DNA of 7,276 bases from the NCBI GenBank assembly GCA_964426185.1, contig CAYRPF010000111.1:1-7276 (forward strand). Reading direction: 5' to 3'. How positions within the stretch are numbered: position 1 is the first letter of the stretch; every line of letters starts with the position of its first letter. The stretch comes from an uncultured archaeon (GTDB lineage Archaea; Asgardarchaeota; Lokiarchaeia; Sigyniarchaeales; Promethearchaeaceae). A model generated the notes under the pieces. The model was not told the DNA's origin, ran no database searches, and worked only from the letters and a program-made list of their open reading frames with translations. Shown one piece after another: positions 1 to 7,276 of the stretch. The translations under genes were made by a program, and so were the position numbers.

Positions 1-2
1 GT

Positions 3-53
3 GATGATAACGATCCAATTTCCGGTCCAAGCACCTATTTTAGTGGAAATTAA
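3..53 (+). CDS. Possible 3' end of a gene entering from the left edge (…DDNDPISGPSTYFSGN*)
   Basis: Frame open from the window edge to TAA at 51-53 and followed by T-tracts. Too short to identify; frame 1 (stop at 76-78) is an alternative. Confidence 0.25.
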   Translation, partial: DDNDPISGPSTYFSGN

Positions 54-67
54 ATACCCATCAAATT

Positions 68-102
68 GGATCTTTTAAAATTTTAGATCTTTTTTCTTTT
101 TT
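68..102 (+). terminator. Putative terminator for a plus-strand gene ending at the left edge
   Basis: Weak GATCT...AGATC inverted repeat followed by TTTTTTCTTTTTT on the plus strand. Confidence 0.3.
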
Positions 103-173
103 CTTGTAGTTTCATGTCACGCATTTCTATCTTAGCGTAGTGATAAGAAAATTACAAAATAAAAATCGTCTTG

Positions 174-190
174 AAAAAAAATAAAACAAT
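174..190 (-). terminator. Putative oligo-T terminator of the tusA-dsrE-iscS-iscU operon
   Basis: The minus strand reads ATTGTTTTATTTTTTTT, starting 6 bp after the iscU TAG stop. Confidence 0.4.
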
Positions 191-196
191 GAATGG

Positions 197-1000
197 CTAG
201 CATACAGGTGGAACATTTACCGTATTCAACAACAATAGCTGATCTATGAATAAATCATATTCGCTTTTTTCATCCAAATCTAACATTTTAGCCTTTTCAA
301 CCTCATCATCACCCATAACGGCTAAAATCTTGGCTTCTGTCAATAACTTTACGTTAGACGAACGGAGTTGAGACTTCAAATTCGGGTCATCTGTATGAAT
401 TTTGGTGGCAGAGGTAGCTAAAATCACTCGATTCGTTACTTCAGTTAAATTTAAAGCAGCTCGAATACTCTCATCTCCGTTAAACCTTATTAAAGTTCGC
501 TGATCTTTAAAAACATCCAGCTTTGAGATAGAATAGGATACACCTTTACCCAAATATTCTAATTCACCTAAAATAGAATTATTATCAATTGTATTATCTA
601 CTTCAACTGGTTTTTCCACCATTATTCCTGCACGGTAATTTTTGATTGCTTCATGTAAGGCATCGGCCGCTAAATTACTACAATGCATTTTAATTGGGGG
701 TAAACCATCCAGTTCCTCTGCAACATCCTTGCGGGTGACTTTCAATGCTTCATCTAGCTTCATCCCTTTTACCATTAAGGTTGTCATAGAGCTTGTTGCA
801 ACTGCACTTCCGCAACCAAATGTTTGGAATTTAATATCTTGAATGACATCATCTTCTACTTTGATGTACATTTCCATGATATCACCGCATGTGGGGTTTC
901 CCACCCGTCCCATAGCCACGTTTTCTCCAGTAAGCGTTCCCACATTACGGGGATTACGAAAATGTTCCAATACTTTTTCAGAATATTTTGTTGATTTCAT
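197..1000 (-). CDS. iscU: IscU/NifU-N-type Fe-S scaffold (aa ~1-125) fused to a degenerate thioredoxin-reductase-like NAD(P)H-binding domain (aa ~143-257)
   Basis: N-terminus YSEKVLEHFRNPRNVG; cluster ligands GNPTC38GD40, FGC63GSA and LPPIKMH106C107. The C-terminal half (ILGELEYLGKGVSYS...FKDQRTLIRFNGDESIRAALNLTEVTNRVIL...MGDDEVEKAKMLDLDEKSEYDLFIDQLLL) follows the pattern of the TrxB NADPH domain. A GGTGA RBS lies within the iscS 3' end. Confidence 0.93.
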   Translation of the reverse strand: MKSTKYSEKVLEHFRNPRNVGTLTGENVAMGRVGNPTCGDIMEMYIKVEDDVIQDIKFQTFGCGSAVATSSMTTLMVKGMKLDEALKVTRKDVAEELDGLPPIKMHCSNLAADALHEAIKNYRAGIMVEKPVEVDNTIDNNSILGELEYLGKGVSYSISKLDVFKDQRTLIRFNGDESIRAALNLTEVTNRVILATSATKIHTDDPNLKSQLRSSNVKLLTEAKILAVMGDDEVEKAKMLDLDEKSEYDLFIDQLLLLNTVNVPPVC

Positions 1001-1002
1001 TT

Positions 1003-2196
1003 TTATGTCACCTTTATTTCAGAATAGAGGGGAGATAACTCCCGCAAGCGTTTTACAATCTGTGGAGTCAATTCTACTGCTTTATCAATATGCTCCATAG
1101 TAGTATAACGCCCAGTAGTAAATTCTAATGACCCATGTGCTTCTTCATGCAGCAATCCAGTAGAAATAAGAGTATGCGAAGGTTCCAGTGTTTTAGAGCT
1201 GCAAGCCGATCCTGTAGAAACGGCCATGTTCTGTTCTTTAAACATCAATAGTATGGATTCTCCTTCGATTCCATCAAATCGGAAATGGGTATTATTTGGC
1301 AAACGGTCGGTCGGATGTCCGTTCAAATAGCTGTGGGGAACTTCCGCTAAAATTTCTTTTTGAAGTTTATGTTGATATTGTCGATACCTAGATACTTCTT
1401 CAGCTTGTTTTTCTTGAAGGATTCGGGTGGCTTCTGCCATGCCTACAATTCCTGCAACATTTTCCGTTCCAGATCTTATCCCTTTTTCTTGACCCCCCCC
1501 AATAATAATAGGCGAGACTCGAAAACCCTTTTGAATAAACAATGCTCCCACTCCTTTTGGTCCATAAAAATCATTGCTACTTAGAGACATGATATTGATA
1601 TGATGGTCTTTTGGATGGAGATCTAATTGACCTTGAGCGGCCACCGCATCTGAATGGAGAGCAATTCCATTTTCAGCAGCGATTTCTCCCACTTCATCAA
1701 TGGGTTGAATTGTTCCAATTTCATTGTTAGCATATTGGACTGATATGAGAATTGTTTTATCAGTAATGCGTTTACGAAGTTTTTCCACCCGAATTCGACC
1801 GTATTGGTCAACAGGAACTTTAGAAACTACGAAGCCGTTTTTTTCCAAGTATTTTACCAAGTTATGTTGTGAGATATGTTCAACTTCCGATATTATAATA
1901 TGGTTTCCCTTACGACGATTACGAATTGCATATCCTAACAGCGCGAGATTAACCGATTCGGTGGCTCCTGAAGTGAAAATGATTTCTTCTGGCAAAATTT
2001 TCAGAAAAGAAGCAATTTGTTCTCGCGCTTTGGTGAGTGCATCTTCTGCTACATCTCCGATGGTGTGTAGAGAGGAAGGATTTCCATATAATTGATCAAA
2101 AAATGGTAACATTCGCTTGACTACGCGCTCATCAACAGGTTTACTTGCTTGATAATCCAAATTTATTACGGGTTTTTTATTTTGAGTTTGTGACAT
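1003..2196 (-). CDS. iscS: IscS/NifS-family (group I) cysteine desulfurase homolog with the PLP Lys replaced by Asp (Archaeoglobus-type, probably desulfurase-inactive)
   Basis: Motifs LDYQASKP, YGNPSSLH, IIFTSGATES, EVEH, ANNEIGTIQP, GGGQEKGIRSGTEN and STGSAC332SS. The canonical SxHK motif reads SSN208D209FYGPKG. GGGAG RBS upstream. Confidence 0.95.
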   Translation of the reverse strand: MSQTQNKKPVINLDYQASKPVDERVVKRMLPFFDQLYGNPSSLHTIGDVAEDALTKAREQIASFLKILPEEIIFTSGATESVNLALLGYAIRNRRKGNHIIISEVEHISQHNLVKYLEKNGFVVSKVPVDQYGRIRVEKLRKRITDKTILISVQYANNEIGTIQPIDEVGEIAAENGIALHSDAVAAQGQLDLHPKDHHINIMSLSSNDFYGPKGVGALFIQKGFRVSPIIIGGGQEKGIRSGTENVAGIVGMAEATRILQEKQAEEVSRYRQYQHKLQKEILAEVPHSYLNGHPTDRLPNNTHFRFDGIEGESILLMFKEQNMAVSTGSACSSKTLEPSHTLISTGLLHEEAHGSLEFTTGRYTTMEHIDKAVELTPQIVKRLRELSPLYSEIKVT

Positions 2197-2253
2197 TTTT
2201 TTACTCCCATTAATTTTTTGTGTGAAATTGTTTTACTAAATAATTTTCTGGTG

Positions 2254-2631
2254 TTAAAACCACATGGTTCCTTTTGCATCAAAAACTAAATCGTTTAATG
2301 TAGCAGCACCTACAATCTGTAAAAATGAAGGTAGTTTCACAGAATTCCATCCGAGCATCTGTTTAGAGGCTTCACATACATAAATGGGAATGCCCATATC
2401 ATGTGTTTTCTTTAAGAGTTCAAAAAGTGAGGGAAATGAACCGATTTTTATTTTTTCGGCTTGTTCCTTCGGTAAAACGCGTAAGCTTTGCCCGAGAAAA
2501 TACACTTTTGCCTCAATATCCATTGCTTTTGCGGATTGGGCAAGAATTAAAGGGGAATACTGCCGTTCAGGGTCATCGCTGGTTTGTACATACAGTAGAT
2601 ATTCCTTTTCTTTTTTTTCCGTTTCTGTCAT
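2254..2631 (-). CDS. DsrE/DsrF-like family sulfur carrier protein
   Basis: 125 aa with a DsrE-like layout (LYVQTSDDPER...AQSAKAMDIEAKVYFLGQS...GIPIYVC86EAS...IVGAATL). The single Cys is at the conserved DsrE position. AGGAG RBS upstream; lies between tusA and iscS. Confidence 0.85.
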   Translation of the reverse strand: MTETEKKEKEYLLYVQTSDDPERQYSPLILAQSAKAMDIEAKVYFLGQSLRVLPKEQAEKIKIGSFPSLFELLKKTHDMGIPIYVCEASKQMLGWNSVKLPSFLQIVGAATLNDLVFDAKGTMWF

Positions 2632-2658
2632 GGTTATTTGAGCTCCTGAATTTATCGA

Positions 2659-2898
2659 TTATTTTTTTTGAATCAAAAATCGAAATTCACCGTTTTCTTC
2701 GCTGACTTCTATCAAGATATTTCCCGTTCTTTTACAAAATCGGGTTAAATCCTCCTTTGAGGCTGGATCATCGGCTAGTACCTCTAAGACATCGCCGCTC
2801 TGAAGTTCATCCATCTTGGAGCGGGTTTGAAATAATGGTTCAGGGCAGAACACCCCGATGCAATCTAAGGTTTCTTTGGGTGAATCTGAATTTTTCAT
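2659..2898 (-). CDS. tusA: TusA/SirA-family sulfurtransferase (sulfur carrier)
   Basis: LDCIGVFCPEP contains the CPxP persulfide motif; also GDVLEVLADDPASKEDL and C-terminal FRFLIQK. The ATG at 2898 (79 aa) is preferred over the TTG at 2907 in the ORF track. Confidence 0.92.
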   Translation of the reverse strand: MKNSDSPKETLDCIGVFCPEPLFQTRSKMDELQSGDVLEVLADDPASKEDLTRFCKRTGNILIEVSEENGEFRFLIQKK

Positions 2899-3014
2899 CC
2901 TTATCAATAATTAGATAGTGTGATTAATTTTATTTTAGCCGCTTTTATGAGATAAAGATTTAAGGATAATTGGTTATTTTAGAAACAAAAATTTGCAACT
3001 TCTCAAATATTGGT

Positions 3015-3028
3015 GGAAAATTTATTGA
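3015..3028 (+). promoter_or_regulatory. Putative archaeal BRE/TATA promoter for the HAD gene
   Basis: GGAAAA-TTTATTGA: a purine-rich BRE-like run followed by a TATA-like box about 30 bp upstream of the ATG at 3058. Confidence 0.45.
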
Positions 3029-3057
3029 TTATCAAGTATTGTGCTAAATGATAACTG

Positions 3058-3888
3058 ATGGGTAATATTAAGTGCATTTCATTTGATTTATGGGAGACAA
3101 TAATCCAAGATCATTTCCAATTTGATGCCAGAATAGCTATCTTAGATGAATTTTTGAATACTAAAGGCTTGAAAATTCCTAAGAAGACTCTTAAAAACCG
3201 TTATATGGAAAAAGCAGGCGGATATGCAGAATTTATTACTCAAGAGAGCGATTATCGGCATGTAAGTTACCAGACACGCTTAAGAAAATTCTTCAATTCA
3301 TTTGATCTAGATGTTTCCGAAGAGGAGATGGAATATATTAGTTCCCAGTTTAATCAAGTTTTTTTAGATGACCCTCCCCAGTTTTACTCGGATATAGTAA
3401 AAATTTTACCCAAATTATCTGAAAGTTATCAAATTATACTCATAAGCGATACAGGATTCATTTATGGGAATACCATGCGGGAATTACTTAAAAGAAATAA
3501 CCTTCTCAAGCATTTCTCTCACTGCTACTTTTCCGATGAAACTGGTCATTACAAACCTCATCCCAAAGCTTTCAAACTAGCTGAGAAACAAACGGGATTT
3601 TCCCCGTATGAAATGGTTCATATTGGGGATCGCATTGATACAGATGTGGTGGGGGCTAATAGAAATGGCTGGTGGAGTGGACTAATAGTCAATCACGATG
3701 AAAACAGATGGGATCTGTTCCAAGATAGCCAAAAAAATCATAAATTGAACAATCTCAAACTTACTGGTCAAGAAGCAGCAGAAATTGTGAAAAATAGGGA
3801 AAAAAAGCGAGAACTAGAGAAGATTCCCGATTTTGTTTTAAAGAAATGGGAAGAAATTTGGGATGAATTAAAAAAAATAAATAGTTGA
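3058..3888 (+). CDS. HAD-superfamily hydrolase, subfamily IA-like; substrate unknown
   Basis: Motif I ISFDLWET, motif II ISDTG, motif III YKPHP, motif IV HIGDRIDTDVVGA, helical cap between motifs I and II, C-terminal PDFVL strand. Confidence 0.9.
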   Translation: MGNIKCISFDLWETIIQDHFQFDARIAILDEFLNTKGLKIPKKTLKNRYMEKAGGYAEFITQESDYRHVSYQTRLRKFFNSFDLDVSEEEMEYISSQFNQVFLDDPPQFYSDIVKILPKLSESYQIILISDTGFIYGNTMRELLKRNNLLKHFSHCYFSDETGHYKPHPKAFKLAEKQTGFSPYEMVHIGDRIDTDVVGANRNGWWSGLIVNHDENRWDLFQDSQKNHKLNNLKLTGQEAAEIVKNREKKRELEKIPDFVLKKWEEIWDELKKINS

Positions 3889-3897
3889 AATCCTAAT

Positions 3898-6267
3898 TCA
3901 AAAATTCTGATGTTCGGTGCGTCTGATTATTTCTTCTTGCAGTTTCTGTCCTAAATTAATAAAGTAATCACTGTAACCCGCCACCCTTACTATTAAATTG
4001 CGATATTGCTCAGGATTTTTCTGAGCTGCCCTTAGAGTAGCTGCATCGACCACGTTGAACTGGATATGATGTCCATCCATTTTAAAATACGACCGAATTA
4101 AGTGAAGCACCTTTATAAGACCTGACTCTTCTTGCAGCAAAGATGGATTAAACTTCTGATTCAGCAAGGTTCCACCAGTTCTTAAATGGTCGAGTTTAGC
4201 TGCTGATTTGAGAACGGCGGTTGGTCCTTTTATATCAGCACCTTGTACCGGTGAAATTCCCTCTGATAATGGCATCATGGCTTCTCTACCATCCGGTGTG
4301 GCACCGATTACAGAACCAAAATAAACATGAACAGTAGTTGGGAGCAAATTTATGCGATAATGGCCTCCTTTCGAGTTAGGGCGGCCGTCTACTAAATCAA
4401 AAAGGACATCAAACACTTCTTGTGCAAATCTATCGGCATAATCGTCATCATTACCATATTTTGGAGTGTCATTGATCAATTTATGCCGAAAATCGTGATA
4501 TCCTTCAAAGTTTTTATCCAATATATTTACTAATTCGTTCAAGGTCAGTGATTTTTCATCAAAAACATGTTTTTTTATTGCGGCTAACGAATCGGAGATA
4601 GATCCCATCCCAACCATTTGAATATAATTACTGTTATAGCGCGCCCCTCCGGCGTTATAATCCTTTCCCTTTTTAATACAATCTTCTATAATAATAGATA
4701 AGAAAACCGCCGGTAGTTCTCTGGCCCATAACTGTTCAATAATTTGATTTCCCTTTATCTTGATATCAATAAAATATGCTAATTGTTTCTTAAAAGCCTC
4801 GAAGAATGCTTCATAATTTTCAAACGTATCATTTTCTCCAGTTCTCGGACCAATTTGTTTTTGGGTGCGGGAATCAAATCCATTATGCAATGTAATTTCT
4901 AAAACTTTTACAATATTGAAATATCCGGTTAGGATATAAGCTTCTTTTCCAAAAGCGCCCACTTCCACACATCCACTGGCTCCAGAAAGGCGGGCTTCAA
5001 CCAAATCTTTACCTTGTCTTAAAAGTTCCTGGATAATAGCGTCACAATTAAATATAGAGGGTTGGCCGAAACCCGTTTTTATGATATCTAAAGCGCGCAT
5101 TAAGAGGCGATCGGGCGTTTTTTTGCTGATTTGAACATTGGAACTGGGTTGTAATATACGCATTTGCTGAATGGTGTCGAGTATCATATAAGATAGTGGA
5201 TTAGTGCCATCTGACCCATCCGCCTTCAATCCACCGATGTTGATATTGCAAAAATCAGTATATGTATTGCTTTCTTCGGCTGTAACTCCGACTTTTGGCG
5301 GTGCTGGCTGGTTGTTAAATTTGATCCAAAAAGCTTGAAGCAATTCTCTAGCGAATTCTTCATCCCATTTCCCCTCTGCAAGTTCTTTTTGATAGAAGGG
5401 AAAAAGATTCTGATCCAATCGACCTGGATTAAAGGAATCCCAAGTATTTAATTCAGTTATTACTCCCAAATGGATAAACCAATAATGCTGAAGCGCTTCC
5501 CAGAAATTTCGTGGAGTATGTGCCGGAACCCAATCACAAATCTCCGCAATTTGAAGCAATTCTCGCTTTCTCTGCGGATCCAATGCAGAATTTTCATTTG
5601 CCATTGTTCTGGCTAGTTCTGCATAACGATGGGCAAAAGCGATAATAGCTTCGGCGGCAATATTCATAGCCCTTAATTGATCCCGTTTCATTAATGCCTC
5701 CGGATCGTTTAAGAAATCGAGTTTAGAGATGGATTGCTGAATTTCCTTGATGAAATCTAGCATTCCTTTTTGAAAGACTTGCTTACCCGCTACAGTATGC
5801 CCGGGAGCGCGTTGTTCCATGAATTCAGTAAACACACCTGCTTTATAGGCAGCAATCCATTCTTGATCCATTTCTGAAAAGATTTTGTCTCTGATAGATT
5901 TTCCTTTCCAAAATGGAAGAATCACTGATTGAGTGAGCTTTTTAGTCTCCTCTGTTACCTTAAATGATATTTTTGGGCGATTATGTAAAATATCCAGATC
6001 CTTCAATGTATGACAGCATATTTCGGGATAAGTAGGCGTTGCCAGGGGCGCCGGTCCCCTTTCTCCAACGATTAATTCCCCCTCATTAATGCAGATTTCC
6101 TTATTTTCAAGAATATGACGAAATGCCAAAGCTCGCATTATGGGCGTTGGATATTGTTGATTTTCATGATTTTGATAGAATTCGGTAATTAGCTTTGCCC
6201 GTTCTATTGAAAGTTCCGGTTGGGTGCTCACACTTTGTTCTCTTAAGCGGTGTATACGTTCGTTCAT
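3898..6267 (-). CDS. hypD: Glycyl radical enzyme, trans-4-hydroxy-L-proline dehydratase
   Basis: 789 aa. Glycyl loop RVAG764YS and Cys loop SGC433VE435. HypD-type segments PTYPEICCH, FTEFMEQRAPGH157TV, W276D277, FNNQPAPPKVG, ES333NTYTD338F339, LTGY449 and LPT644T match the Clostridioides difficile HypD active-site set as recalled (H160, D278, S334, D339, F340, C434, E436, Y450, T645, G765). Confidence 0.9.
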   Translation of the reverse strand: MNERIHRLREQSVSTQPELSIERAKLITEFYQNHENQQYPTPIMRALAFRHILENKEICINEGELIVGERGPAPLATPTYPEICCHTLKDLDILHNRPKISFKVTEETKKLTQSVILPFWKGKSIRDKIFSEMDQEWIAAYKAGVFTEFMEQRAPGHTVAGKQVFQKGMLDFIKEIQQSISKLDFLNDPEALMKRDQLRAMNIAAEAIIAFAHRYAELARTMANENSALDPQRKRELLQIAEICDWVPAHTPRNFWEALQHYWFIHLGVITELNTWDSFNPGRLDQNLFPFYQKELAEGKWDEEFARELLQAFWIKFNNQPAPPKVGVTAEESNTYTDFCNINIGGLKADGSDGTNPLSYMILDTIQQMRILQPSSNVQISKKTPDRLLMRALDIIKTGFGQPSIFNCDAIIQELLRQGKDLVEARLSGASGCVEVGAFGKEAYILTGYFNIVKVLEITLHNGFDSRTQKQIGPRTGENDTFENYEAFFEAFKKQLAYFIDIKIKGNQIIEQLWARELPAVFLSIIIEDCIKKGKDYNAGGARYNSNYIQMVGMGSISDSLAAIKKHVFDEKSLTLNELVNILDKNFEGYHDFRHKLINDTPKYGNDDDYADRFAQEVFDVLFDLVDGRPNSKGGHYRINLLPTTVHVYFGSVIGATPDGREAMMPLSEGISPVQGADIKGPTAVLKSAAKLDHLRTGGTLLNQKFNPSLLQEESGLIKVLHLIRSYFKMDGHHIQFNVVDAATLRAAQKNPEQYRNLIVRVAGYSDYFINLGQKLQEEIIRRTEHQNF

Positions 6268-6269
6268 TT

Positions 6270-7055
6270 TTACCCTCCAATTTTACAGTTGGGAAAGGTT
6301 TTTAGAAAAAAATTGCGAATTTCTTGCATGCGTTCCGAAGTCGGTGGCTTTAAATTGGTTAATCGATATTCACATCCCAATTGTTTATATTTTCGAATTC
6401 CAAATGTATTATATGAAAGAAGACTGATATCTCCAGTGAAATGGACTTGTTTCAAGTAATTTTTGATAGAAACCAGATTTGCTTCCGAATCTGTTATACT
6501 AGGTATAATCGGGATGCGGATATGTACATTTTGGTGATTTTCTATAAGTCGAATTAAATTGTTTAAAATCTCATGGTTATCTACTCCTGTATATTTTTTA
6601 TGGCTTTCATTATCAATTAACTTTAGATCATACAAGAATAGATCAATGTTTGACAGCATAGGCTCTAAAATTTCCCAAGAAACATAACCAGACGTGTCAA
6701 CAACAGTATGCAGCCCTTGTTTTTTACATTCATCCAGAAGTTTGGCCAGATATTTTGGCTGCATAAAAGGTTCTCCGCCCGAAAATGTTACACCACCGTC
6801 TGATTCATCGTAAAAAATTCTATCCTTCAAAATTTCATTCATAACTTCTGCTACATTCATGGTTTTTCCGATTATTTCTTGAAAATTGGGACCAGTTAGA
6901 TATTTCTGAGGTTCTAATTGCTGACTTTCTGGATTATGGCACCACCAGCATGATAATGGGCATCCCTTCAAGAAGATTGTGGTCCGTATACCTGGACCAT
7001 CGTGAATTGCGAATTTTTTAATGTCAAAAACAATACCACTAAGTTGATTGCCCAT
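6270..7055 (-). CDS. Glycyl-radical enzyme activating enzyme (radical SAM, PflA family), cognate HypD activase, short form
   Basis: HDGPGIRTTIFLKGC32PLSC36WWC39HNPES (CX3CX2C), GGVTFSGGEP, VDTSG, LYDLKL, HKKYTG and RIPIIP motifs; stop lies 2 bp before the hypD start. Confidence 0.95.
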   Translation of the reverse strand: MGNQLSGIVFDIKKFAIHDGPGIRTTIFLKGCPLSCWWCHNPESQQLEPQKYLTGPNFQEIIGKTMNVAEVMNEILKDRIFYDESDGGVTFSGGEPFMQPKYLAKLLDECKKQGLHTVVDTSGYVSWEILEPMLSNIDLFLYDLKLIDNESHKKYTGVDNHEILNNLIRLIENHQNVHIRIPIIPSITDSEANLVSIKNYLKQVHFTGDISLLSYNTFGIRKYKQLGCEYRLTNLKPPTSERMQEIRNFFLKTFPNCKIGG

Positions 7056-7276
7056 AAAATTAGGAAAAAATTACTAAAATATGAATTTATGTAAAAACCA
7101 CAACATTCATCCCATTATGCCCAATCTCCGACATCATGCCACACTATGACTTAGCATGAAGATAACTATCCATCCGACATGGTGCCGATAGGCACCAGCA
7201 TCACGTTAAGCCGTTAGCATGTCTCTCTATATTTTTCAGAAGACACCACACCTAACTAACCCAAAGATTTAAGCGG

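Follow-up and report, generated by a model that had tools for sequence, protein, structure and literature searches.

The locus

We examined a window of 7,276 nucleotides, positions 1-7,276 of the forward strand of contig CAYRPF010000111.1 (assembly GCA_964426185.1), from an uncultured Lokiarchaeia archaeon (Sigyniarchaeales; Promethearchaeaceae). Its open reading frames comprise tusA, dsrE, an iscS gene without the Schiff-base lysine, iscU, a HAD gene, and a glycyl-radical enzyme with its activase. The first four of these are arranged as follows.

2659..2907, minus strand: tusA, 27 bp upstream of dsrE (Pfam PF01206, E 7.6e-26), with active-site Cys21 in a CPxP motif
2254..2631, minus strand: dsrE, a DsrE-family sulfur carrier, 57 bp upstream of iscS (Pfam PF02635, E 1.2e-11)
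1003..2196, minus strand: iscS, an ORF of 397 aa encoding a type-I (IscS/NifS-like) protein of the class-V aminotransferase fold, without the Schiff-base lysine
197..1000, minus strand: iscU, 2 bp downstream of iscS (Pfam NifU_N, E 6.7e-48)

By sequence, the iscS product belongs to the type-I IscS/NifS class-V aminotransferase family, as given by its matches to Pfam PF00266 (E 6.6e-70, residues 11-372) and to 4EB5. The latter is one of three entries (4EB5, 4EB7, 4HVK) for its top PDB match, IscS2 of Archaeoglobus fulgidus (E 4.8e-123, residues 13-392 against 4-381 of 382); the second match is 4R5F, the D199K variant of the same protein. Identity to E. coli IscS (K-12 reference, NC_000913.3) is 43%, and to canonical type-I desulfurases, the genome's own paralogues included, 38-43% over the full length.

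The other products of the cluster keep their expected cysteines. The scaffold domain of IscU (C38, D40, C63, H106, C107), at the N terminus, matches IscU structures in the PDB, and 104-106 related loci keep its three Cys without exception. About 140 further residues extend IscU at the C terminus, with weak similarity to the NADPH domain of thioredoxin reductases (2zbw, E 1e-6, residues 145-258; TIGR01292, E 5.7e-11, residues 141-254). Its terminal Cys267 was considered as a conserved relay Cys and rejected, being found in the nearest relatives only, at or near the C-terminal end. Cys86 of DsrE, the candidate active-site residue, is kept in 79/79 cassette homologues, and Cys21 of TusA in 103/103. 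The listed start of tusA is a TTG at 2907, with an alternative ATG at 2898.

This neighbourhood recurs widely. Of 30 Asgard loci, 28 have iscU directly downstream of the Lys-less iscS, as do 79 of 80 genome loci. In most of these loci tusA lies upstream; dsrE does so in about 60% of the Asgard set and about 75% of the genome set. As a control, 20 Lys-bearing Asgard paralogues gave no tusA or dsrE match within about 2.5 kb. Adjacency to tusA is nevertheless not unique to the Lys-less form, because tusA genes also lie close to a Lys-bearing paralogue of this very genome, on contig C110. Judged from these loci, the order tusA-(dsrE)-iscS-iscU is conserved as a tight, predicted four-gene operon across two domains.

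Substituted and retained active-site residues

Reading the codons and aligning the product to E. coli IscS place the following residues in the active site.

1570..1575, minus strand: Schiff-base motif SxHK changed to Asn-Asp, codons 208-209 AAT GAT (E. coli H205, K206)
1639..1641, minus strand: Gln of DAxQ (PLP O3' contact, E. coli Q183) changed to Ala, codon 186 GCC
1123..1125, minus strand: conserved Arg (E. coli R354) changed to Glu, codon 358 GAA
2140..2142, minus strand: Thr (E. coli T13) of the N-terminal DYxAxxP motif changed to Lys, codon 19 AAA, a clade-specific gain
1201..1203, minus strand: mobile-loop Cys in GSACSS, codon 332 TGC (E. coli C328), equivalent to the A. fulgidus IscS Cys proposed as a ligand of the IscU cluster
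1876..1878, minus strand: PLP-stacking His retained, codon 107 CAT (E. coli H104)
1648..1650, minus strand: Asp183 retained, the ring-N Asp (E. coli D180)
1960..1962, minus strand: Thr79 retained, from alignment and codon reading
1579..1581, minus strand: Ser206 retained, from alignment and codon reading

An earlier note on this DNA had described the replacement of HK by ND at 1567-1581, and the codons bear it out: 206-210 read S-S-N-D-F and fill that interval exactly, with Asn208 (AAT) at 1573-1575 and Asp209 (GAT) at 1570-1572, in the context SSNDFYGPKG. In the alignment N208 pairs with H205 of E. coli IscS, D209 with K206, A186 with Q183, H107 with H104, D183 with D180 and C332 with C328; on the A. 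fulgidus side, Asn208 and Asp209 pair with Asn198 and Asp199 of IscS2, and Asp209 also with the D199K residue of 4R5F. His107, Asp183 and Cys332 are thus retained, as the note had it. It was also right that the PLP-contacting Gln is lost within HSDAVAA, but the replacing residue is Ala186, the first Ala after Val, and not Ala187. As for K214, which had been put forward as a possible occupant of the aldimine position, it aligns with K211 of E. coli, within YGPKG. It is equally conserved in Lys-bearing enzymes (118/126), and since that motif is common to them we rejected it as a relocated Schiff-base Lys.

To see how far these changes are shared, we compared 131 Lys-less with 126 Lys-bearing sequences, the latter drawn from a search of representatives clustered at 50% identity. 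That search returned no representative more than 50% identical to the query, and the window's own cluster seems absent there. At the Schiff-base motif, Asn and Asp are each found in 122/131 Lys-less sequences, against His in 107/126 and Lys in 126/126 of the Lys-bearing ones. The DAxQ position holds Ala in 127/131 versus Gln in 121/126, and the R354 position Glu or Gln in 122/131 versus Arg in 125/126. This Arg we take to be the anchor of the substrate carboxylate. At codon 19 the Lys-less class has Lys in 94% of sequences and the Lys-bearing class in 0%, with Thr in 92%; all 21 cassette-clade rows of the tree carry Lys there (Arg in one row). The remainder of the pocket is held: the loop Cys is present in 130/131 Lys-less sequences, His107 in 129, Asp183 in 131, Thr79 in 127 and Ser206 in 129.

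The window protein therefore lacks the marks of a canonical desulfurase: there is no Lys in SxHK, the DAxQ Gln has given way to A186 and the conserved Arg to E358. Four residues held necessary for the desulfurase reaction are lost: the Schiff-base Lys, the neighbouring His, the O3' Gln and the conserved Arg. Read from these alignments, the substitutions are coordinated and near-invariant across the Lys-less class.

The signature also stands in other data. Four public runs, from as many different studies and one of them possibly the sample from which the window was assembled, yielded contigs that cover 1563-1602 with no differing letter. By pattern search, SSND is matched in 117 of the 120 closest database homologues (the other three fitted no search pattern), and SSND or SAND in about 70 of 80 genome loci, most of the remainder failing the search pattern. 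Across these sequences the Asn-Asp signature is far beyond what chance would give.

Relatives and distribution

Phylogenetically, the ND-type proteins, the window protein among them, form one clade (FastTree support 98, 35 rows) that is found again in IQ-TREE (SH-aLRT 97, 26 rows); A. fulgidus IscS2 and Methanosarcina acetivorans IscS1 lie outside the sampling of both trees, and the latter also outside the alignments. The clade spans Asgard archaea, other archaea and many anaerobic bacteria, and in the public genomes searched, most Asgard archaea have the Lys-less form as the IscS linked to IscU. Two near-complete Thor-type genomes yielded no other type-I IscS, and in them it adjoins the best IscU match. 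The idea that some Asgard genomes have no Lys-bearing Aminotran_5 protein at all was rejected for the five genomes checked: HK-bearing matches were tallied in three of them, SufS-like in each Thor-type genome and type-I in two genomes, and in another of the five (G001) the only matches seen were other Aminotran_5 proteins, with their Lys position unread. The genome of the window itself encodes two canonical HK/DAVQ/R paralogues (contigs C37 and C110), a SufB-like gene and a second IscU-like gene.

A probable lysine-less docking partner for IscU

The class to which we assign this protein has been described before. The replacement of Lys by Asp in A. fulgidus IscS has been known since 2012-2015. 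With its Asp199, this protein binds PMP and is devoid of desulfurase activity, and it was proposed to contribute a Cys as ligand of the [2Fe-2S] cluster on IscU (PMC8918507); the same account is given in PMC7585200, where M. acetivorans IscS1 is also reported to be without the Lys. The residue change is thus not new, and the A. fulgidus biochemistry that the earlier note had cited agrees with these sources. The likeness to the window protein extends well beyond Asp199. IscS2 reads SSNDIYGPKG and HIDATAS, with Ala at the DAxQ Gln position; it has the N-terminal Lys (SAKP), the loop Cys in GSACSSKT and a canonical IscU partner. It differs in having Leu at the position of Glu358, where the window clade has Glu or Gln, and its 153-aa IscU is without the thioredoxin-reductase-like extension.

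With Asp at the Schiff-base position, the loop Cys, a paired IscU and a place in the Lys-less clade, the window gene likely encodes an IscS of the A. fulgidus IscS2 type, a docking partner of IscU and not a cysteine desulfurase. The pseudo-desulfurase class named in the earlier note is thus well supported here, the loss of activity being what we infer from homology and from the four missing catalytic residues. The protein would be unable to abstract sulfur from cysteine and would act as a dimeric docking partner for the IscU encoded next to it. Following the model put forward for A. fulgidus IscS-IscU, Cys332 may supply the fourth ligand of the nascent [2Fe-2S] cluster or relay persulfide to it. 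A cofactor (PMP or PLP) is probably still bound non-covalently as a structural element. Because such a protein could not itself take sulfur from cysteine, the sulfur would have to come from outside, possibly as free sulfide. In E. coli without IscS, IscU can be supplied by sulfide (PMC13015791). Alternatively, the conserved upstream genes suggest, by synteny, a persulfide carried on TusA or DsrE, which could be charged by one of the two canonical Lys-bearing desulfurases of the genome or by reduced sulfur from the environment.

Conserved as they are, Asn208, Asp209, Glu/Gln358 and Lys19 fit a remodelled functional pocket better than a merely dead one. A tentative and rather doubtful extension would make the Asn-Asp/Ala/Glu(Gln)/Lys19 set a remodelled site, and tusA-dsrE-iscS-iscU, with its thioredoxin-reductase-like IscU, a self-contained, horizontally mobile and cysteine-independent module for Fe-S assembly. 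In it, persulfide from TusA/DsrE would pass to Cys332 and IscU, and the former PLP pocket would act as a gate, holding PMP or another ligand (Fe2+ or a regulatory metabolite).

The same constraint on the pocket could also be taken as the mark of an enzyme. The protein might be a PLP/PMP enzyme of altered chemistry, using a relocated Lys (Lys19, or Lys335, three residues past the loop Cys) or a mechanism with free cofactor, and either desulfurating cysteine or acting on another substrate. His107, Asp183, Thr79 and Ser206 are under constraint (127-131 of 131), Lys19 is conserved in 94% of the Lys-less class and absent from the Lys-bearing one, and Asn208, Asp209 and Glu/Gln358 show fixation, not drift. 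Nevertheless, the Arg presumed to anchor the substrate carboxylate is lost, and A. fulgidus IscS2 shares the SAKP Lys and the SKT motif yet is reported without desulfurase activity. The cofactor state of that protein can be read both ways: PMP implies a past transfer of an amino group to the cofactor, but the D199K variant also held PMP (PMC8918507). Moreover, IscS alone held PMP and the complex was modelled with PLP (PMC8918507), a discrepancy that hints at residual cofactor chemistry. On balance we regard an enzyme of this kind as unlikely.

A regulatory or competitive decoy, which would bind IscU and/or TusA to sequester them or to gate sulfur from the canonical desulfurases, outside cluster assembly, seems to us very unlikely. 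The two canonical paralogues and the second IscU-like gene would leave room for it, and M. acetivorans IscS1 and IscU1 were inconsistently detected in proteomes (PMC7585200). Against it stand the Thor-type genomes, where no type-I IscS other than the Lys-less protein was found and this protein sits beside the best IscU match, the four-gene order kept across two domains, and the A. fulgidus complex, in which the IscS Cys ligates the cluster (PMC8918507).

Finally, a sequencing or assembly error, or a decaying pseudogene, can be dismissed with near certainty, the 397-codon frame being intact, two base changes separating GAT from a Lys codon, the contigs of four runs agreeing at codons 208-209, and about 230 homologues, at 57-82% identity, sharing the same residues; the earlier argument that coordinated changes speak against an error holds.

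Comparison with known systems

The docking-partner reading has close parallels, none of them complete. Ligation of the cluster by an IscS Cys is known only for the A. fulgidus complex of IscS with IscU(D35A) (PMC8918507). The isc1 cluster of M. acetivorans (IscS1 MA0808, IscU1 MA0807) resembles the cassette overall, the pair being clustered with four further genes without assigned function; its IscS1 is without the PLP-binding residues, Lys included, and was insoluble on expression and never characterised, and its IscU1 is enlarged, at 24.2 kDa (PMC7585200). Canonical type-I desulfurases (E. coli IscS, NifS and the paralogues) have in common with the window protein the Pfam family, the loop Cys, the stacking His, the ring-N Asp and an IscU next door, but their Lys206, His205, Gln183, Arg354 and Thr13 are all replaced in it. 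Also, unlike canonical ISC, the operon contains no hscBA, fdx, iscA or iscR.

In E. coli, the desulfurase IscS charges TusA with sulfur. That relay, and the DsrE/TusA relays of sulfur oxidisers, resemble the cassette in placing a CPxP TusA and a DsrE-family Cys protein by an IscS-like gene. Compared with E. coli, sulfur would here flow in reverse, from TusA/DsrE to the Lys-less IscS and IscU, or TusA might merely dock.

As far as PMC12192291 and PMC13066941 relay the MIS and SMS systems (Garcia et al. 2022), the cassette shares with them a core of two genes, iscS and iscU, free of chaperones and carriers; indeed, the window ORFs contain the iscS-iscU pair and no chaperone, ferredoxin or A-type carrier. 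Its occurrence in anaerobes that also encode SufB is SMS-like, and SMS, in the same sources, has been shown to use sulfide. They describe MIS with a working cysteine desulfurase, whereas the Lys-less clade is without the catalytic residues and adds tusA and dsrE.

Annotation and reach

What matters here is less the residue change than its reach, which in the public genomes searched takes in most Asgard archaea and many anaerobic bacteria. In the literature searched, no account of this class in Asgard archaea came up. How an IscS-IscU pair builds clusters without desulfurase activity is given as an open question in the review literature. It can now be tested, because tusA almost always, and dsrE usually, accompanies the Lys-less genes, in contrast to the Lys-bearing paralogues that were sampled in related genomes.

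Databases uniformly name the Lys-less homologues 'cysteine desulfurase (family protein)', and for that reason metabolic reconstructions of Asgard archaea and sediment anaerobes that read the locus as cysteine-dependent Fe-S assembly are probably wrong for it. The warning that this label misleads is reinforced by the profile scores, which fail to separate the two classes: against the NCBIfam NifS model the window protein scores 448 bits, and the genome's Lys-bearing paralogues 443 and 465. The window protein reaches none of the NCBIfam equivalog or subfamily cut-offs (NifS, 448 versus 530.75; IscS, 376 versus 643; NF002806, 291 versus 304), but these cut-offs are non-discriminating, as neither Lys-bearing paralogue attains the equivalog ones.

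Active-site residues of IscS*

The Lys-less IscS gene of the window, iscS*, lies in a co-directional cassette, in the order tusA-dsrE-iscS*-iscU, with gaps of 27, 57 and 2 bp:

2659-2907, minus strand: tusA
2254-2631, minus strand: dsrE
1003-2196, minus strand: iscS*, 397 codons
1573-1575, minus strand: iscS* codon 208, AAT (Asn)
1570-1572, minus strand: iscS* codon 209, GAT (Asp)
197-1000, minus strand: iscU

Direct reading of the minus strand gives Ser-Ser-Asn-Asp-Phe for codons 206-210 (1581-1567). Alignment of IscS* and its paralogues in this genome with the E. coli K-12 iscS product (NC_000913.3) confirms that Asn208 and Asp209 take the place of the His-Lys pair, as the earlier note had read, and that His107, Asp183 and Cys332 are retained. 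The Gln of the DAxQ motif is indeed changed, but the residue in its place is Ala186 and not the next one, Ala187. Turning codon 209 into either Lys codon would take two substitutions. Four public metagenome runs, belonging to four studies, have contigs that span the Asn-Asp codons with zero variants, which argues against a sequencing error, one of these runs being possibly the source sample. A strain-level variant at 1678 (A>C on the plus strand), at the third base of IscS codon 173, occurs in contigs from runs X2 and X3.

Residues of IscS*, their E. coli IscS counterparts and their frequencies in an alignment of 131 Lys-less and 126 Lys-bearing IscS-like sequences
Window; E. coli; Lys-less; Lys-bearing
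K19; T13; Lys 94%; Lys 0%, Thr 92%
T79; T76; Thr 127/131
H107; H104; His 129/131
D183; D180; Asp 131/131
A186; Q183; Ala 127/131; Gln 121/126
S206; S203; Ser 129/131
N208; H205; Asn 122/131; His 107/126
D209; K206; Asp 122/131; Lys 126/126
K214; K211; (see text); YGPKG motif 118/126
C332; C328; Cys 130/131
E358; R354; Glu or Gln 122/131; Arg 125/126

The coordinated nature of the changes holds across nearly the whole class and extends to one that the earlier note had not listed, the loss of the Arg at position 358, which we take to be the substrate-carboxylate anchor of type-I and type-II desulfurases, as their structures show it. Lys19, in the N-terminal DYxAxxP motif, was added by a search for columns specific to one class. 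The cofactor-pocket residues Thr79, His107, Asp183 and Ser206 are kept, position 244 is Thr or Ser, and the loop Cys is missing from a single Lys-less sequence. These class-wide counts show a site stripped of residues regarded as necessary for the desulfurase reaction, yet constraint acts on the surviving pocket and on the replacement residues alike. Lys214 had been named as a possible substitute aldimine Lys; this role is ruled out, because Lys214 sits in the YGPKG motif common to Lys-bearing enzymes.

Family, distribution and phylogeny

IscS* falls in Pfam Aminotran_5 (E 6.6e-70). Its top match among solved structures is Archaeoglobus fulgidus IscS2 (4EB5, 4EB7, 4HVK; E 4.8e-123, 414 bits; window residues 13-392 against 4-381 of 382), followed by the D199K variant of the same protein (4R5F). 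At the corresponding places A. fulgidus IscS2 reads SSNDIYGPKG, HIDATAS, SAKP and GSACSSKT, and on this match and these motifs we assign IscS* to the A. fulgidus-type class, in agreement with the earlier note. The biochemistry given there is also found in the literature: A. fulgidus IscS, with Asp199 at the Lys position, binds PMP and shows no desulfurase activity, and one of its Cys residues is proposed as a ligand of the [2Fe-2S] cluster on IscU; PMP is still bound by its D199K variant, and how clusters are built in the absence of that activity is described as an open question (PMC8918507). IscS1 of M. acetivorans is likewise without the Lys; it is paired with an enlarged IscU1, in a cluster with four genes of unknown function (PMC7585200). 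The Lys-less class is thus already known from a description in A. fulgidus and a mention for M. acetivorans.

Among the 120 database homologues nearest to IscS* (61-100% identity), 117 show the SSND pattern, the other three fitting no search pattern and being unread by eye. The named ones come from Promethearchaeota/Lokiarchaeia, including the cultured Lokiarchaeum ossiferum, and from Thor-, Odin- and Sif-archaea. Matches at E <= 1e-40 occur in 126 of 151 genomes sampled from the phylum of the window. The best 80 loci in a scan of GTDB species genomes (57-82% identity, the closest being Candidatus Harpocratesius repetitus at 82%) include Asgard, Helarchaeota, Thermoplasmata and 'Methanobacteriota' MAGs among archaea, and many anaerobic Bacteria: Deltaproteobacteria (including Syntrophus, Smithella and strain NaphS2), WOR-3, Actinomycetota, Aminicenantes, Zixibacteria, Acidobacteriota and others. 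About 70 of these 80 carry SSND or SAND, most of the remainder having failed the search pattern and being unread by eye.

In the phylogeny proposed in the earlier note, the Lys-less sequences that group with that of the window form one supported clade (FastTree support 98, 35 rows; IQ-TREE SH-aLRT 97, 26 rows). Nested in it is a cassette clade (support 99-100) whose signature is K(R)-A-N-D(A)-C-E/Q. Rows from archaea and from bacteria intermingle there, which suggests that the whole cassette was transferred between domains. The full cassette is seen in many anaerobic Bacteria at 57-64% IscS identity (loci L039-L118; Deltaproteobacteria, WOR-3, Actinomycetota, Aminicenantes, Zixibacteria, Acidobacteriota).

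A second, separate Lys-less group has cluster members named Latescibacteria, Zixibacteria, Gemmatimonadota and Nitrospirae, and isolated single losses are also present in the trees; together these indicate that Lys has been lost more than once in the IscS-like family. Five changes of Lys state are needed on the trees, and no more than two or three of them are forced by starred branches. In the separate group (P0192, P0226, P0264, P0266) the Arg position is occupied by Leu. Beside it stands protein P0127, in which His-Lys is kept, yet Gln-to-Ala and Arg-to-Leu are already present; it could represent an intermediate state.

A conserved gene cassette

The gene order of the window recurs in related loci chosen by IscS peptide patterns only. 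IscU lies directly downstream of the Lys-less iscS in 28/30 Asgard and 79/80 genome loci, TusA upstream in 28/30 and 77/80, and DsrE upstream in 19/30 and about 60/80, contig ends accounting for most loci that lack one of these neighbours. Where the gene is present, TusA Cys21 (103/103), DsrE Cys86 (79/79) and three IscU Cys (104-106 loci) are invariant. As a control we took 20 Lys-bearing paralogues from Asgard genomes that also carry the Lys-less gene: none had tusA or dsrE within about 2.5 kb, a count that is no statistical test since the genomes are related, and a short IscU adjoins five. A counter-case is found in the genome of the window itself, where the Lys-bearing paralogue on contig C110 has tusA and DsrE-like genes nearby.

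The window IscU bears a C-terminal extension of about 140 aa (residues ~131-267; 197-610, minus strand), which shows weak similarity to a thioredoxin-reductase or ferredoxin-NADP-reductase NADPH domain (PDB 2zbw, E 1e-6; TIGR01292, E 5.7e-11) and is found in most cassette loci, whereas A. fulgidus IscU (153 aa) lacks it. Its terminal Cys267 is not conserved in the related loci compared. An Odin-type outlier (G001, a single-contig 1.4-Mb Asgard genome; locus L138) has Asn-Ser at 208-209 and lacks Lys19, yet still shows the cassette arrangement; no IscU extension was detected at this locus.

Proposed function

The alignments show that four catalytic residues have been lost, with the loop Cys retained along with most pocket residues, and the related loci show that iscS* is conserved as the partner of iscU and as a neighbour of tusA and dsrE. 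We infer that IscS* lacks cysteine desulfuration activity. It would form an (IscS*-IscU)2 complex in which Cys332 may ligate the nascent cluster on IscU, or relay sulfur to it, the cofactor being presumably a structural element. Sulfur might enter as sulfide, or as persulfide borne by TusA or DsrE. The sulfide route is plausible because sulfide is usable through IscU in E. coli lacking IscS (PMC13015791) and is used by SMS, a minimal Fe-S assembly system (PMC12192291); the persulfide route is suggested by synteny alone. The main rival is that IscS* is still a PLP or PMP enzyme, of altered kind, in which the Lys has moved to position 19 or 335, but A. fulgidus IscS2 has both lysines and is nevertheless reported inactive, which makes this reading the less favoured one.

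Annotation and other Fe-S genes of the genome

Database names for the Lys-less proteins are 'cysteine desulfurase' or 'cysteine desulfurase family protein', the misleading naming against which the earlier note had warned. With the NCBIfam NifS equivalog model, IscS* scores 448 bits and two Lys-bearing paralogues 443 and 465, all below the 530.75 cut-off, and NCBIfam holds no model for the Lys-less class. As the scores overlap, profile scores cannot tell the classes apart; only four or five signature columns can. The residue change in itself will be no surprise to a specialist, and some value lies rather in the breadth of the class, its systematic mis-naming and a testable link to sulfur carriers.

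The assembly (3.26 Mb, 155 contigs, 92% complete) also encodes two canonical type-I paralogues, one on contig C37 and one on C110, in which HK, DAVQ, Arg and loop Cys are all present, a second, divergent IscU-like gene on C110 (162 aa) and one SufB-like gene. Two near-complete Thor-type genomes have the Lys-less protein as their sole type-I IscS, alongside a SufS-like HK protein. The C110 sulfur-mobilisation locus (L002, L121, L123, L126) joins its canonical HK IscS/NifS-like gene and divergent IscU-like gene to two tusA copies, three small DsrE/F/H-like genes and a ThiF/MoeB-like E1 gene. Elsewhere in the window, 3898-7055 (minus strand) holds a glycyl-radical enzyme (789 aa, PFL-like and Gly_radical) together with its radical-SAM activase (261 aa).
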